64,000 bases of DNA from Escherichia phage vB_EcoM_11B_SA_NWU. Where the stretch lies: the sequence record OR062527; one strand, 5' to 3'. The position numbers and the translations under genes were made by a program. The notes under the pieces were generated by a model, which was not told where the DNA came from, did no database searches, and saw only the letters and a list, made by a program, of their open reading frames with translations. Within the stretch, counting starts at the first letter, position 1. Every line of letters starts with the position of its first letter. Shown here in pieces: positions 19,001 through 48,492 of this stretch.

Positions 19001-19151
19001 GTCTGAACGACGTAAATTAATGAGTCCTTTATTTGATGCATCTGGAACAACATTTGCACAATTTAGAGATTTAGTTAATAAACGTCTAAAAGATAATATA
19101 GGAAATCCAAGAGACCCTGAAAATCCAACACAGGTTAAAATAGATGAATGA
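16053..19151 (+). CDS. 7: baseplate wedge protein gp7
   Basis: 1032 aa, synteny. Confidence 0.8.
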   Translation: MTVKAPSVTSLRISKLSANQVQVRWDDVGANFYYFVEIAETKSNSGKNLPSNQYRWINLGYTANNSFFFDDADPLTSYVIRVATAAQDFEQSDWIYTEEFETFATNAYTFQNMIEMQLANKFIQEKFTLNNSDYVNFNNDTIMAALMNESFQFSPSYADVSSISNFIIGENEYHEIQGSIQQVCKDINRVYLMESEGILYLFERYQPVVKVSNDKGQTWKAVKLFNDRVGYPLSKTVYYQSANTTYVLGYDKIFYGRKSTDVRWSADDVRFSSQDITFAKLGDQLHLGFDVEIFATYATLPANVYRIAEAITCTDDYIYVVARDKVRYIKTSNAPIDSDPLSPTYSERLFEPDTMTITGNPKAVCYKMDSIGDKVFALIIGEVETLNANPRTSKIIDSADKGIYVLNQDTKTWKRVFGNTEEERRRIQPGYANMSTDGKLVSLSSSNFKFLSDNVVNDHETAVKYQLIGAVKYEFPREWLADKHYHMMAFIADEKSDWETFTPQPMKYYAEPFFNWSKKSNTRCWINNSDKAVVVYADLKYTKVIENIPETSPDRLVHEYWDDGDCTIVMPNVKFTGFKKYASGMLFYKSSGEIISYYDFNYRVRDTVEIIWKPTEVFLKAFLQNQERETPWSPEEERGLADPDLRPLIGTMMPDSYLLQDSNFEAFCEAYIQYLSDGYGTQYNNLRNLIRNQYPREEHAWEYLWSEIYKRNIYLNADKRDAVARFFESRSYDFYSTKGIEASYKFLFKVLYNEEVEIEIESGAGTEYDVIIQSDSLTEDLVGQTIYTATGRCNVTYIERSYSNGKLQWTVTIHNLLGRLIAGQEVKAERLPGFEGEIIRGVKGKDLLQNNIDYINRSRSYYVMKIKSNLPSSRWKSDVIRFVHPVGFGFIAITLLTMFINVGLTLKHTETIINKYKNYKWDSGLPTEYADRVAKLTPTGEIEHDSVTGEAIYEPGPMSGIEYPLPGDYNTENNNSVFQGQLPSERRKLMSPLFDASGTTFAQFRDLVNKRLKDNIGNPRDPENPTQVKIDE

Positions 19152-20148
19152 TTCAAGTGTTATCTATCGTGCGATAGTTACTTCAAAATTTAGAACAGAA
19201 AAAATGTTGAATTTTTATAATTCAATTGGAAGTGGTCAGGATAAAAACACTATCTTTATCACATTTGGAAGATCAGAACCGTGGTCATCAAACGAAAATG
19301 AGGTGGGATTTGCCCCACCTTATCCAACCGATTCTGTATTAGGTGTAACTGATATGTGGACGCATATGATGGGAACAGTAAAGGTTCTTCCATCTATGCT
19401 TGATGCAGTTATTCCTCGTCGAGATTGGGGAGATACTAGATATCCGGATCCATACACATTTAGAATTAACGATATTGTAGTGTGTAACTCAGCTCCTTAC
19501 AACGCTACTGAATCAGGCGCAGGCTGGTTAGTATATCGTTGTTTAGATGTTCCTGATACCGGAATGTGTTCAATAGCATCTTTAACTAATAAGGATGAAT
19601 GTCTTAAATTAGGTGGAAAATGGACTCCTTCTGCTAGGTCAATGACTCCTCCTGAAGGCCGAGGAGATGCTGAAGGAACAATTGAACCTGGCGATGGATA
19701 TGTATGGGAATATCTTTTTGAGATTCCGCCTGATGTATCTATAAATAGATGTACGAATGAGTATATTGTAGTTCCTTGGCCTGAGGAATTAAAAGAAGAC
19801 CCGACTAGATGGGGGTATGAAGATAATCTCACTTGGCAGCAAGATGATTTTGGATTAATTTACCGTGTTAAGGCAAATACTATCCGTTTTAAAGCATATT
19901 TAGATTCAGTTTATTTTCCTGAAGCTGCATTGCCGGGAAATAAAGGATTTAGACAAATATCAATAATTACGAATCCTCTTGAAGCTAAAGCTCATCCAAA
20001 TGACCCAAATGTTAAAGCTGAAAAGGATTATTATGATCCGGAAGATTTAATGAGGCATTCGGGCGAAATGATTTATATGGAAAATAGGCCACCTATTATT
20101 ATGGCAATGGATCAGACAGAAGAAATCAATATTCTGTTTACATTTTAA
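19144..20148 (+). CDS. 8: baseplate wedge protein gp8
   Basis: 334 aa, synteny; terminator hairpin downstream. Confidence 0.8.
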   Translation: MNDSSVIYRAIVTSKFRTEKMLNFYNSIGSGQDKNTIFITFGRSEPWSSNENEVGFAPPYPTDSVLGVTDMWTHMMGTVKVLPSMLDAVIPRRDWGDTRYPDPYTFRINDIVVCNSAPYNATESGAGWLVYRCLDVPDTGMCSIASLTNKDECLKLGGKWTPSARSMTPPEGRGDAEGTIEPGDGYVWEYLFEIPPDVSINRCTNEYIVVPWPEELKEDPTRWGYEDNLTWQQDDFGLIYRVKANTIRFKAYLDSVYFPEAALPGNKGFRQISIITNPLEAKAHPNDPNVKAEKDYYDPEDLMRHSGEMIYMENRPPIIMAMDQTEEINILFTF

Positions 20149-43882: not shown

Positions 43883-44563
43883 TTATTTTAATGTTACGAA
43901 AGAAGAATTGCGTGTTTCACGAATTAGAACTGATCCGTCGCGATTAATGTAATAAATTAAGCTAAACAGAGTTTGGTGTGCTGACGCGTGTTCAAAACTA
44001 GTTGGATGAGATTTCCAATCAGGAGTTTCAGCGATCCATTGATAAATCCACCAAGGAACCGTACAGAATCCTGGATTTTTCCCCAATAATTGAAGATTCG
44101 GGCTAAAGTTTTCCGGAAGAGTAAATACAGACGGCTTTTCAGATTCAATAATCTCAGCTACAGCTTGTTCAAACTTTTCTTCAACAAAAGGAGTGTCTTC
44201 AATCAAAACATCAGTATTTTCAGGAATTTTATCCGTTTCTACCACTTCAATTTTAATATCAGATTTAACTGGAGAATCAATCAGAAGTGCTGCTTCTGGA
44301 TTAACTTCTTCATCGTCATATTTTAATCCCTCTGCAGCATCAGCAGCATCAATTAAGTCTTTAATAGATAACCCATCAGTCTCTGGCATAGGTTCACTAG
44401 CGAGCTTCTGGAGGGCTTCTTCAATATCAACAACAATATTATCAAAAGATTTATTCTTTTTGACCTTTATACCAAACTGTTCAGCATATTCAGCTAATTT
44501 AGCTTTAGCTTCTTTATTATCATCAAGAGCCTTCAGCTCTGCAATATAATCTTTATCTATCAT
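43883..44563 (-). CDS. inh: Inh-like protein (prohead protease inhibitor)
   Basis: 226 aa, position next to hoc. Confidence 0.6.
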   Translation of the reverse strand: MIDKDYIAELKALDDNKEAKAKLAEYAEQFGIKVKKNKSFDNIVVDIEEALQKLASEPMPETDGLSIKDLIDAADAAEGLKYDDEEVNPEAALLIDSPVKSDIKIEVVETDKIPENTDVLIEDTPFVEEKFEQAVAEIIESEKPSVFTLPENFSPNLQLLGKNPGFCTVPWWIYQWIAETPDWKSHPTSFEHASAHQTLFSLIYYINRDGSVLIRETRNSSFVTLK

Positions 44564-44576
44564 AATATTTCCTCAG

Positions 44577-44584
44577 TATAAATA
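44577..44584 (+). promoter_or_regulatory. late promoter TATAAATA (uvsW)
   Basis: exact consensus 30 nt upstream of ATG. Confidence 0.55.
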
Positions 44585-44613
44585 TAGATATATTTATTAC
44601 ATGGTATTTAGAC

Positions 44614-46125
44614 ATGACTGACATTAAAGTACATTTTTATGATTTTAGTCACGTGAGAATTGATTGTGAAGAAAGTACATTTCATGAACTCCGTGATTTC
44701 TTTAGCTTTGAAGCTGATGGGTATCGTTTTAATCCGAAATACAAATATGGCCACTGGGATGGACGAATCCGTCTTTTAGATTATAATCGCCTTCTTCCAT
44801 TCGGCTTAGTCGGGCAAATTAAAAAGTTCTGTGATAACTTTGGCTATAAAGCCTGGATTGACCCACAAATTAACGAAAAAGAAGAATTATCAAGAAAAGA
44901 TTTTGATGAATGGCTTTCTAAATTAGAAATCTATTCAGGAAATAAAAGAATTGAACCACACTGGTATCAAAAAGATGCAGTGTTCGAAGGATTAGTTAAT
45001 CGTCGTAGAATTCTTAATCTTCCAACTTCGGCTGGTAAATCTTTAATTCAAGCTTTGCTTGCACGTTATTATTTGGAAAATTATGAAGGTAAAATTCTTA
45101 TCATTGTTCCAACAACTGCTCTGACAACTCAGATGGCTGATGACTTTGTTGACTATCGTTTATTCAGTCATGCAATGATAAAGAAAATTGGTGGCGGAGC
45201 ATCAAAAGATGATAAATATAAAAATGATGCACCAGTCGTTGTTGGTACATGGCAAACTGTAGTAAAACAACCAAAAGAATGGTTCTCACAGTTTGGAATG
45301 ATGATGAATGATGAATGCCATCTTGCTACAGGAAAAAGTATTTCATCTATCATATCAGGTTTAAATAACTGTATGTTCAAATTTGGTCTATCTGGTTCAT
45401 TACGTGACGGCAAAGCCAATATCATGCAGTATGTTGGAATGTTTGGCGAAATATTTAAGCCAGTAACGACTTCTAAGTTAATGGAAGATGGACAAGTAAC
45501 TGAGCTAAAAATTAATAGTATTTTTCTTCGTTATCCTGATGAGTTCACTACTAAATTAAAGGGAAAAACTTACCAAGAAGAAATAAAAATTATTACGGGG
45601 CTTAGTAAAAGAAATAAATGGATCGCTAAATTAGCTATTAAGCTTGCGCAAAAAGATGAAAACGCTTTTGTCATGTTTAAACATGTATCGCACGGTAAAG
45701 CTATTTTCGATTTAATTAAAAATGAATACGATAAAGTTTATTACGTATCAGGGGAAGTTGATACCGAAACACGCAATATAATGAAAACCTTAGCTGAAAA
45801 TGGTAAAGGAATAATTATAGTAGCTAGTTATGGTGTATTTTCTACTGGTATTTCAGTTAAAAATCTGCATCACGTTGTTTTAGCGCACGGTGTTAAATCA
45901 AAAATCATTGTATTACAAACAATCGGTCGTGTATTACGTAAGCATGGTTCTAAGACAATAGCAACAGTCTGGGACCTCATAGATGATTGCGGTGTTAAGC
46001 CAAAATCTGCTAATACGAAAAAGAAATATGTTCATTTGAACTATCTTTTAAAACACGGCATTGATCGTATTCAGCGCTACGCGGATGAAAAATTTAATTA
46101 CGTAATGAAAACAGTTAATTTATAA
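44614..46125 (+). CDS. uvsW: UvsW helicase
   Basis: Walker A PTSAGKS, DEcH motif NDECH; late promoter at 44577. Confidence 0.9.
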   Translation: MTDIKVHFYDFSHVRIDCEESTFHELRDFFSFEADGYRFNPKYKYGHWDGRIRLLDYNRLLPFGLVGQIKKFCDNFGYKAWIDPQINEKEELSRKDFDEWLSKLEIYSGNKRIEPHWYQKDAVFEGLVNRRRILNLPTSAGKSLIQALLARYYLENYEGKILIIVPTTALTTQMADDFVDYRLFSHAMIKKIGGGASKDDKYKNDAPVVVGTWQTVVKQPKEWFSQFGMMMNDECHLATGKSISSIISGLNNCMFKFGLSGSLRDGKANIMQYVGMFGEIFKPVTTSKLMEDGQVTELKINSIFLRYPDEFTTKLKGKTYQEEIKIITGLSKRNKWIAKLAIKLAQKDENAFVMFKHVSHGKAIFDLIKNEYDKVYYVSGEVDTETRNIMKTLAENGKGIIIVASYGVFSTGISVKNLHHVVLAHGVKSKIIVLQTIGRVLRKHGSKTIATVWDLIDDCGVKPKSANTKKKYVHLNYLLKHGIDRIQRYADEKFNYVMKTVNL

Positions 46126-46138
46126 GGGCTTCGGCCCT

Positions 46139-46381
46139 TTGGAGAAAAAGATGTTACTAGAATTTAAACAATTTCTTTATGAAGCTTCTATTGATGAATT
46201 TATGGGTAAAATTGCCTCTTGTCAAACATTAGAAGGTTTAGAAGAACTTGAAGCTTATTATAAGAAAAGAGTTAAAGAAACTGAATTAAAAGATACTGAT
46301 GACATCTCAGTCAGAGATGCTTTGGCAGGAAAAAGAGCTGAATTAGAAGATTCAGACGATGAAGTAGAAGAAAGCTTTTAA
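46139..46381 (+). CDS. uvsW.1: UvsW.1 small acidic protein
   Basis: 80 aa; SD GGAG; directly after uvsW. Confidence 0.55.
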   Translation: MEKKMLLEFKQFLYEASIDEFMGKIASCQTLEGLEELEAYYKKRVKETELKDTDDISVRDALAGKRAELEDSDDEVEESF

Positions 46382-46436
46382 ATTAAAAAAGGCCCAACCA
46401 AAAAGGAAGGGCCAAAACTATAGACTAAAGGTCACA

Positions 46437-46604
46437 CTATAGCAAAAGTTGTGTTTCATTTAATTGTTCTTCCGAACTTTCTGAAACTGGTAGTTCTTTA
46501 ATGTAATTATAACAAGGCCCAGGATGTACAGGACCTTTGTCTGTTTCAACAACCAATGCAGAATCGATTGGAGTTTTACAGACAACACAAATCTTATCTG
46601 ACAT
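46437..46604 (-). CDS. small Cys-containing protein (uvsY.-2-like), 55 aa; ORF-track start 46667 trimmed
   Basis: SD AAGGAG before ATG for MSDKICVVC; late promoter TATAAATA at 46630-46637. Confidence 0.45.
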   Translation of the reverse strand: MSDKICVVCKTPIDSALVVETDKGPVHPGPCYNYIKELPVSESSEEQLNETQLLL

Positions 46605-46727
46605 GATTGTCTCCTTTTGAATATAGTAATATTTATAAACCCATTTTAATCCGCATTTCTTGTACACGGATTAAGCAAGCTTCCATCTCTGCTAATAGTC
46701 GAAATACTTCTTTATAATCTGTCATAT

Positions 46728-47434: not shown

Positions 47435-47833
47435 TTATACTCTATTACTGGAAGCTAGTTGTAGTTTTATCTGCTCAATATCATCAGGGTTATCAATGAC
47501 CGAAAAGCGTATTTCTACTATCAGAGTATAATCATCATAAACTGGTATAACATTAACTGCTAATTTATCAATACGCGGCTCATAGTTTCTTACTGCGCTT
47601 TCGATATTACGCTCAACCGTGTCAGCAGTAAGAGGAGTCATATTCTCAAAAAGTTGGTCAGATAAATCACATCCAAATTCAGGGTCAAACGGTCTTGAAC
47701 CTTTTCTTGTTGTAATAATTCCTAAAAGACTATTTTTAATTGACCTTAATCCAAGTGATCTTGAAACGTCTTTGTTCCAATCCATTTTCATCTCTGGGTC
47801 AATATCAGAATAAAGCTTATTAATATTTGCCAT
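47435..47833 (-). CDS. 25: baseplate wedge protein gp25
   Basis: 132 aa, synteny. Confidence 0.85.
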   Translation of the reverse strand: MANINKLYSDIDPEMKMDWNKDVSRSLGLRSIKNSLLGIITTRKGSRPFDPEFGCDLSDQLFENMTPLTADTVERNIESAVRNYEPRIDKLAVNVIPVYDDYTLIVEIRFSVIDNPDDIEQIKLQLASSNRV

Positions 47834-48459
47834 TACAATAGCTCAAAGAATTCTTTGAGTCCTCTTATTACATGAGCGTGAGTTTTTCCACACTCTGGAC
47901 ATTTAATTGGAACAGCCAAATACACAGTAGGCTTTAAAAGCATATCTTTTATAGCTACAATATCTGACTCTGTGATGATAGAATATAAATCTTCCAATTC
48001 TTTTTCATTTAAGTCTTCAACTGGAATGCTTTCCCCGTTAGCATGAATCGTTTCTATACATGATACTATCATATGGGCTATATTTTTATCATCAAAAATT
48101 TTAGGGTAATGGAATTTAATTTTAATGTCACCCAGTGTATACCAGAGGTCTTCTGGTGCATCTATTTGTGTATGTAATAGATTTATATGGGTTGGTATTT
48201 CAGTTCCACAGGTGCACTTCCAGGAGTTTTCGTGATTAACTTCTCCAAGAGAATGCGCCCATAAATGAATCAGTAATAGTTCTGATTCTTGGCGGTTTAA
48301 ATCTTTTGCATTTGTACAGTCTTTGATTAGCTTTTTAACAATTACTTCTACGGAACCATTATTTTTGGCAGTAATAAGTTCTAGATATTCTTTAAGAGTA
48401 AATGCGCGACAGTTGATTATTTTAGAACCAACTCTCACATCAAATTTGTATTCATACAT
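47833..48459 (-). CDS. 26: baseplate hub protein gp26
   Basis: 208 aa; minus-strand late promoter at 48481. Confidence 0.8.
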
Positions 48460-48480: not shown

Positions 48481-48492
48481 TATTTATAAATA
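48481..48492. promoter_or_regulatory. overlapping divergent late promoters (gp26 minus, gp51 plus)
   Basis: TATTTATAAATA contains TATAAATA on both strands. Confidence 0.55.

Follow-up and report, generated by a model that had tools for sequence, protein, structure and literature searches.

The closest described system is uvsY.-2 of bacteriophage T4 (NP_049797.1 / UniProt Q00778; PF10886, DUF2685; phrog_1043), one of the few conserved T4 genes without an assigned function that have a measurable, complementable fitness effect (PMC11879866). In a T4 CRISPRi-ART screen, knock-down of uvsY.-2 resulted in smaller plaques and a lower EOP, was scored 'Semi-Fit' and was rescued in trans; in the same screen uvsY, uvsY.-1 and uvsW were scored 'Not Fit', the knock-downs of uvsY and uvsW being neutral (PMC11879866). 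The protein has been detected in T4-infected cells by mass spectrometry/proteomics, and the T4 omics supplement places the uvsY.-2 RNA in the 'middle' class and the protein in the 'late' class, and the RNA of both uvsY and uvsY.-1 in the 'early' class (PMC9697503). A review of T4 replication contains nothing on uvsY.-2, and no mention of 'DUF2685' was found in the literature searched.

The window, which is the whole stretch of 64,000 nucleotides of Escherichia phage vB_EcoM_11B_SA_NWU (OR062527) that was analysed, contains on its minus strand an open reading frame with an ATG at 46604-46602, 55 sense codons (MSDKICVVCKTPIDSALVVETDKGPVHPGPCYNYIKELPVSESSEEQLNETQLLL) and a TAG stop at 46439-46437, the product of which is 100% identical to T4 uvsY.-2 by tblastn. 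This protein matches Pfam DUF2685 over profile positions 1-55 of 55 (119 bits against a cut-off of 25, E=9.3e-35) and phrog_1043 (E=4e-31), DUF2685 is also matched by all 58 aligned relatives, and the coordinates of the gene are those annotated in T4, e112 and KMB40. Every annotated homologue uses the 55-aa start and the N-termini of the 58 family members align at it, in agreement with the MSDK start chosen in the initial annotation. The window belongs to Tequatrovirus: over the surrounding 1.3 kb it has 99% identity to phages of this genus, KMB40 and KIT03 among them, and 743 phage records are matched. By its sequence, the open reading frame is the orthologue of T4 uvsY.-2, a genuine 55-aa gene that was already catalogued, and neither the T4 gene nor the Pfam family had been recognised in the initial annotation. 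Comparison of the two loci indicates that protein, length, start, Shine-Dalgarno sequence, upstream octamer TATAAATA, terminator and position between uvsY.-1 and the convergent uvsW are shared; the difference is a segment of ~97 nt with a 30-aa open reading frame, which lies between uvsY.-1 and uvsY.-2 in the window and is absent from T4. This small frame is intact in 75 phage records including RB69, in most of which it is unannotated, and matches phrog_12503 (E=4e-10). The locus contributes little that is new, since the databases already contain the gene with its start and family and the promoter sequence is the standard T4 late consensus, and there is nothing unusual in the layout of a known gene that is a conserved T4 orphan. 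There is direct support, here or in the cited papers, for the identity of the gene, its start codon, the positions of the motifs, the conservation of the family, the synteny, the expression of the protein and the fitness effect.

Within the window the minus-strand order is 26, 25, uvsY, uvsY.-1, the 30-aa open reading frame and uvsY.-2, with the plus-strand uvsW and uvsW.1 converging upon it, and uvsY.-2 is the last cistron before a hairpin/T-run terminator. Given that the gene is T4 uvsY.-2 and that the genes follow in this order, it lies downstream of uvsY and in the same direction, and not upstream as had been stated. The same position, 3' of uvsY and convergent with uvsW.1/uvsW, is found in T4 and in ten further genera, the order of uvsY, a variable interval, uvsY.-2 and convergent uvsW.1/uvsW being kept in at least 11 genera (Tequatro-, Mosig-, Dhaka-, Mosuguk-, Jiaoda-, Marfa-, Karam-, Krisch-, Tulane-, Schizotequatro- and Bragavirus). 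In most of these uvsY.-2 follows uvsY directly, uvsY.-1 being an addition of Tequatro- and Mosigvirus. In Acj9 the gene is directly 3' of gene 25, with no annotated uvsY between them. The upstream neighbours in Schizotequatrovirus are a tail connector protein, a ssDNA-binding protein (likely UvsY) and a GatB-domain protein, and the locus shown there contains no annotated baseplate gene 25 or 26. In Bragavirus, a genus of Proteus phages, the DUF2685 module is the second, C-terminal half of a fused protein of 126 aa, the ATG of which overlaps the stop codon of uvsY; uvsY.-1 was considered as the source of its N-terminal 72 aa, and no similarity was found.

Table 1. Positions of the features discussed, numbered along the window unless otherwise indicated
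Feature	Position	Strand	Details
uvsY.-2 coding sequence	46437..46604	-	55 aa + TAG; T4 identity, annotation, Pfam/phrog matches
Residues 1-38, predicted C2HC treble-clef zinc finger (C6, C9, H27, C31)	46491..46604	-	conservation, AF2 model, structural neighbours
Residues 39-55, acidic tail predicted to be disordered	46440..46490	-	conservation, pLDDT 58-70
Shine-Dalgarno sequence AAGGAG	46611..46616	-	6 nt before the ATG
TATAAATA, putative T4 late (gp55-type) promoter -10 element	46630..46637	-	exact octamer, spacing, conservation
Predicted late transcription start	46623..46624	-	from the late-promoter rule; in T4 (NC_000866) ~114,680-114,681, minus strand
Intrinsic terminator	46385..46413	-	hairpin 46413-46391 (GGCCC..CC/GG..GGGCC), then T6 run 46390-46385
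30-aa open reading frame MTDYKEVFRLLAEMEACLIRVQEMRIKMGL	46633-46725	-	between uvsY.-1 and uvsY.-2, on the ~97-nt segment absent from T4
Fused DUF2685 protein, Proteus phage PM2	1501-1881 of the locus extract		finger behind an unrelated 72-aa N-terminal domain

The initial annotation proposed a late promoter for this gene on account of the octamer upstream of it on the minus strand. The octamer is present at a distance of 25 nt from the uvsY.-2 ATG, rather than the 26 nt given, and this spacing is normal for a consensus T4 late octamer, the classical late sites of the window, which include those ahead of uvsW, 26, 51 and the large structural genes, lying 21-29 nt from the ATG. T4 late promoters consist of such a -10 element, with no -35 element, a short distance 5' of the gene, and the exact octamer at this position agrees with that. 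There are 24 such octamers in the window against 9.6 +/- 3.1 in shuffled sequence, with none of 100 shuffles reaching 24, and 16 of the 24 are followed on the same strand, within 60 nt, by an ATG open reading frame of at least 40 aa. T4, e112 and Mosigvirus all have the exact octamer, notwithstanding the ~97-nt indel and divergent flanks. In T4 it occurs at the same distance from the uvsY.-2 ATG and between different flanks, where it overlaps the stop codon of uvsY.-1 and not, as here, the TAA stop of the upstream 30-aa open reading frame, because T4 does not have the ~97-nt segment. The place of the octamer is taken by AATAAATA in Dhaka-, Jiaoda-, Marfa- and Karamvirus and by GCTAAATAC in Krischvirus, and no recognisable octamer was found 5' of uvsY.-2 in Schizotequatro-, Acajnona-, Tulane- and Mosugukvirus. 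T4 late transcripts begin about 6-7 nt past the last A of the late octamer, and the start in Table 1 is predicted on this rule. On the evidence of sequence and, indirectly, of the T4 RNA classes (PMC9697503), it is likely that uvsY.-2 has a functional late promoter superimposed on read-through from promoters further upstream: uvsY.-2 would close the minus-strand 26-25-uvsY transcription unit as its last cistron, reachable by such read-through, and the octamer of its own would be recognised by gp55-RNA polymerase.

It is possible that the octamer is incidental, a product of stop codons and AT-richness, and that uvsY.-2 is expressed only by read-through from the middle promoter of uvsY (oriF) and the late promoters of 25 and 26. 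The genome is AT-rich and the octamer does overlap a stop codon both here and in T4 (a TAG in the latter); furthermore, four genera have only AATAAATA, to which the uvsY stop codon contributes a part, and another four have nothing at its place. Read-through is also consistent with the finding of no terminator between uvsY and uvsY.-2, using a simple scanner which missed the looped hairpin 3' of uvsY.-2, and with the overlapping transcription units for 25, 26 and uvsY that are reported in a title cited by PMC2988022. However, an incidental origin is unlikely: the 8-mer is the same in T4, e112, Mosigvirus and the window, where the flanks and even the upstream gene differ, it lies at the same distance from the ATG as proven-type late promoters elsewhere in the window, and in T4 the RNA class of uvsY.-2 is unlike that of uvsY and uvsY.-1 (PMC9697503).

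A scan with the sigma-70 consensus returned 5 sites against 8.2 in shuffles, that is, fewer than in the shuffles. A MotA-box-like TGCTTAA was noticed by eye inside the 30-aa open reading frame and was rejected, as no proper -10 is suitably spaced from it and e112 does not conserve it. Elsewhere in the window, between the divergent genes 26 and 51, a pair of TATAAATA octamers on opposite strands overlap back-to-back at 48481-48492, each 17-21 nt from its respective ATG.

The Shine-Dalgarno sequence described in the initial annotation is present (Table 1), GGAGACAATCATG being conserved across Tevenvirinae genera. At the other end of the gene, a hairpin starts 23 nt past the uvsY.-2 stop codon and has the form of a Rho-independent terminator, being GC-rich and directly followed by a U-run. 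The RNA folds at -16.1 kcal/mol (z=-3.4), with none of 200 shuffles folding as well, the annotation of phage e112 lists this element as a terminator, and a hairpin with T-run is kept 3' of uvsY.-2 in most of the genera examined. The simple terminator scanner did not detect this hairpin because of its internal loop. It is proposed that translation of uvsY.-2 would proceed from a strong ribosome-binding site and that its transcripts would end at this terminator, which faces the convergent uvsW/uvsW.1.

A profile search of 1.84 billion representatives identified 65 clusters, nearly all of proteins 50-66 residues in length; three long proteins among the results are repeat artefacts and not relatives. 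In the 58-member alignment C6, C9, C31 and E42 are invariant and K10, G24, H27 and G29 are at least 90% conserved, so that the metal-site pattern C6-x2-C9-x17-H27-x3-C31 provides a complete C2HC ligand set. The AF2 model made with the family alignment has a pLDDT of 80 overall and of 83-90 for residues 1-40, agrees with an earlier model from a shallower alignment, and consists of a beta-hairpin knuckle, strands 19-21 and 24-26 and a helix from 30 to 37, with the second ligand pair, H27/C31, where strand 24-26 ends and the helix starts. The cysteines had been interpreted as a degenerate zinc ribbon, and the cysteine pattern is indeed real. Nevertheless, the site appeared degenerate because the nearly invariant His27 had been missed, and all four ligands are conserved across the family; nor is the predicted fold that of a ribbon, which needs two beta-hairpin knuckles where only one CxxC is present. 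One CxxC knuckle with two further conserved ligands at the N-terminus of a helix is the arrangement of a C2HC treble clef, and therefore a treble-clef finger, rather than a zinc ribbon, is modelled for residues 1-38. In this model Cys6/Cys9 on the knuckle and His27/Cys31 at the start of the helix most likely hold one Zn(II) together, and the product would be one small treble-clef zinc finger with a flexible acidic tail after it.

The structural neighbours of the AF2 model are all treble-clef zinc fingers, with weak scores, headed by a LIM half-domain and eL24/Rlp24. The ligand spacing of LIM follows the pattern C-x2-C-x16-23-H-x2-3-C, and it is in this spacing class that uvsY.-2 resembles the first LIM finger and the N-terminal domain of eL24/Rlp24. 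A BFVD fold search yielded nothing beyond uncharacterised members of the family and generic zinc fingers, and the matches from a PDB sequence search with the single protein, a spurious repeat match to lysostaphin and weak matches to Mlc, were discarded. The family profile matches the C-terminal zinc finger of Vps39/Vam6 (PDB 6ZE9; zf-Vps39_C, PF10367) with E=0.002, the likeness residing in the first knuckle (CxVCKxxI...G.V), and 7 of the 58 members give sub-threshold matches to the Pfam family; the match falls below the Pfam gathering score, however, and covers positions 3-28 only. No functional inference is drawn from it because Vps39 is a protein of a eukaryotic tethering complex. Separately, the translation of the gp26 baseplate-hub protein (47833-48459, minus strand) has two Cys pairs, one in ..WKCTCGTE.. 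and one in another stretch of 10 residues, which look, from the translation only, like a zinc-ribbon ligand set.

Beyond the finger, where the model confidence is lower (Table 1), two motifs are conserved among the 58 diverse members: (L/V)xES, which contains the invariant E42, and LxE(T/V)(Q/E)LL(L/M)-COOH. Residues 39-55, like the last 16 residues by themselves, include four acidic and no basic ones, and the tip in the window protein is hydrophobic (...LNETQLLL-COOH). Conservation of sequence where no structure is predicted is the signature of a docking peptide, and suggests that the disordered acidic tail may serve as a docking adaptor. Comparable tails are common in T4 proteins of replication, recombination and late transcription: gp32 ends ...DLDDLLNDL, gp33 ...TLDFLL, gp43 ...SLDFLFG, gp55 ...SLDFLYEAND and UvsW.1 ...DEVEESF. 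The UvsW.1 of the window (46340-46381, plus strand) has an acidic tail with a terminal Phe, ...AELEDSDDEVEESF, resembling SSB-type C-terminal tips.

The best explanation overall is probably that the locus encodes the uvsY.-2 orthologue under a late promoter of its own, and that the product is a zinc-stabilised adaptor or regulator docking by its tail; of this, we infer that the late promoter is active, that zinc is bound, that the tail docks and which protein is the partner. The tail would plug into a partner in T4 DNA metabolism and the finger would provide a second contact. Recombination and recombination-dependent replication (UvsY, UvsW/UvsW.1 and the gp32-tail binders) would be the most likely partner module, a role suggested by gene order and hence by association, in a cluster that also holds the baseplate genes 25, 26 and 51 beside the recombination genes. 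The scores of uvsY.-2 ('Semi-Fit') and of uvsY and uvsW ('Not Fit') are unlike what would be predicted for a pure accessory of uvsY and uvsW. A more specific version, and a doubtful one, is that uvsY.-2 could be a regulatory adaptor of T4 replication, recombination or late transcription whose C-terminal peptide docks on a hub, either the gp45 clamp or a gp32-tail binder (UvsY, UvsW or gp59), with the C2HC finger on DNA or a second protein. Were this so, the adaptor would adjust the late changeover from origin-dependent to recombination-dependent replication, and both the retention of the gene beside uvsY/uvsW in at least 11 of the genera examined and the cost of its knock-down, where there is none for uvsY or uvsW, could be explained. 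Experimental handles on these proposals are the C2HC site (C6, C9, H27, C31), the invariant Glu42, the docking-like C-terminal peptide and the near-universal synteny with uvsY/uvsW.

The presence of baseplate genes in the cluster raises the possibility that uvsY.-2 assists late in the morphogenesis of the baseplate hub and wedge (25, 26 and 51), being transcribed together with those genes, and that its adjacency to uvsY is a historical accident. Most of the genera examined have the order 26-25-(uvsY)-uvsY.-2, in Acj9 the gene comes right after gene 25, the T4 protein is classed as 'late' (PMC9697503), and knock-down has a measurable effect where that of uvsY and of uvsW is neutral in the same screen (PMC11879866). 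This role is nevertheless very unlikely, as there is nothing to connect small zinc fingers with acidic tails to the assembly of baseplates, in Bragavirus translation of the gene is coupled to that of uvsY, and in Schizotequatrovirus the gene occurs at a locus that is without an annotated 25 or 26.

Alternatively, uvsY.-2 may be a client of the gp45 sliding clamp, its ...ETQLLL end tethering the finger to late-transcription or replication complexes. The tail resembles those of gp33, gp43 and gp55 in being a flexible segment that ends polar/acidic, hydrophobic, Leu, hydrophobic-COOH; the last four positions share the pattern acidic/amide, hydrophobic, Leu, hydrophobic, COOH with tails of that type. 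A loose C-terminal pattern, applied to ~127 kb of T4 and T4-like open reading frames, retrieved only gp43, gp33, uvsY.-2 and an unannotated 334-aa open reading frame (19144..20148) that is possibly a structural protein, although this pattern was designed after both tails had been seen and about 1.5 chance matches are expected by estimate. Apparent late expression would also fit a clamp client. Such a role is very unlikely because the tail does not have the LDFL core and the tails do not covary. The clamp motif is (S/T)-L-D-F-L-(F/Y/L), with the Leu-Asp-Phe core as its defining part, and uvsY.-2 ends E-T-Q-L-L-L; it is without the aromatic residue and the Leu at -5, which T4 gp43 and gp55 and 5 of 7 gp33 tails conserve, and nearly all DUF2685 members have other residues in place of both this Leu and the Phe at -3. 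In a comparison of gp33 tails from T4 and six other genera, five of the seven orthologues, each of a different genus, keep (T/S)LDFL(L/F/Y/M), and those of Krischvirus (TLDI) and RB16 (TLDDFM) deviate; the uvsY.-2 of Krischvirus ends QTMLLM beside a gp33 that ends TLDI, so that across genera the two tails do not change together.

It is decidedly improbable, and would be argued by analogy, that uvsY.-2 is a zinc-finger inhibitor of a host protein or defence system in the manner of YacG, the E. coli gyrase inhibitor with a finger and an inserting tail, or of the B. subtilis anti-sigma factor CsfB/Gin: the likeness is in the way of working only, and both differ from uvsY.-2 in having no sequence similarity to it, in being C4 rather than C2HC and in being cellular rather than phage proteins. 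Finally, that the true product is the longer GTG-start version of 76 aa (46667..46437), or that there is no gene at all, is extremely improbable and finds support in the mechanical list of open reading frames only, since the upstream extension is not conserved among relatives and in T4, e112, Mosigvirus, Dhakavirus and Jiaodavirus is cut off by an in-frame stop lying 3-16 codons 5' of the start (it had already been dismissed as read-through in the initial annotation), and the 58-member alignment with protein-level conservation down to ~35-40% identity across the family, the detection of the T4 protein by mass spectrometry and the complementable phenotype of a knock-down at the annotated RBS refute it further.

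In the window, uvsW (503 aa) and uvsW.1 are separate open reading frames on the plus strand; at their junction (46090-46160) lie a GGGC-TTCG-GCCC hairpin, a GGAG and an ATG at 46151, and the listed TTG start of uvsW.1 at 46139 is probably too far upstream. The T4 RefSeq record, which differs here by a small indel, gives one fused UvsW of 587 aa and carries a note about discrepancies in the sequence. There is no segE homing-endonuclease gene at 44563-44614 between inh (43883..44563, minus strand) and uvsW, where T4 carries segE. Putative endonucleases are found at two other points: between uvsY and uvsY.-2 in the Dhakavirus IME281, and in Proteus phage PM2, where one interrupts uvsW and uvsW.1.
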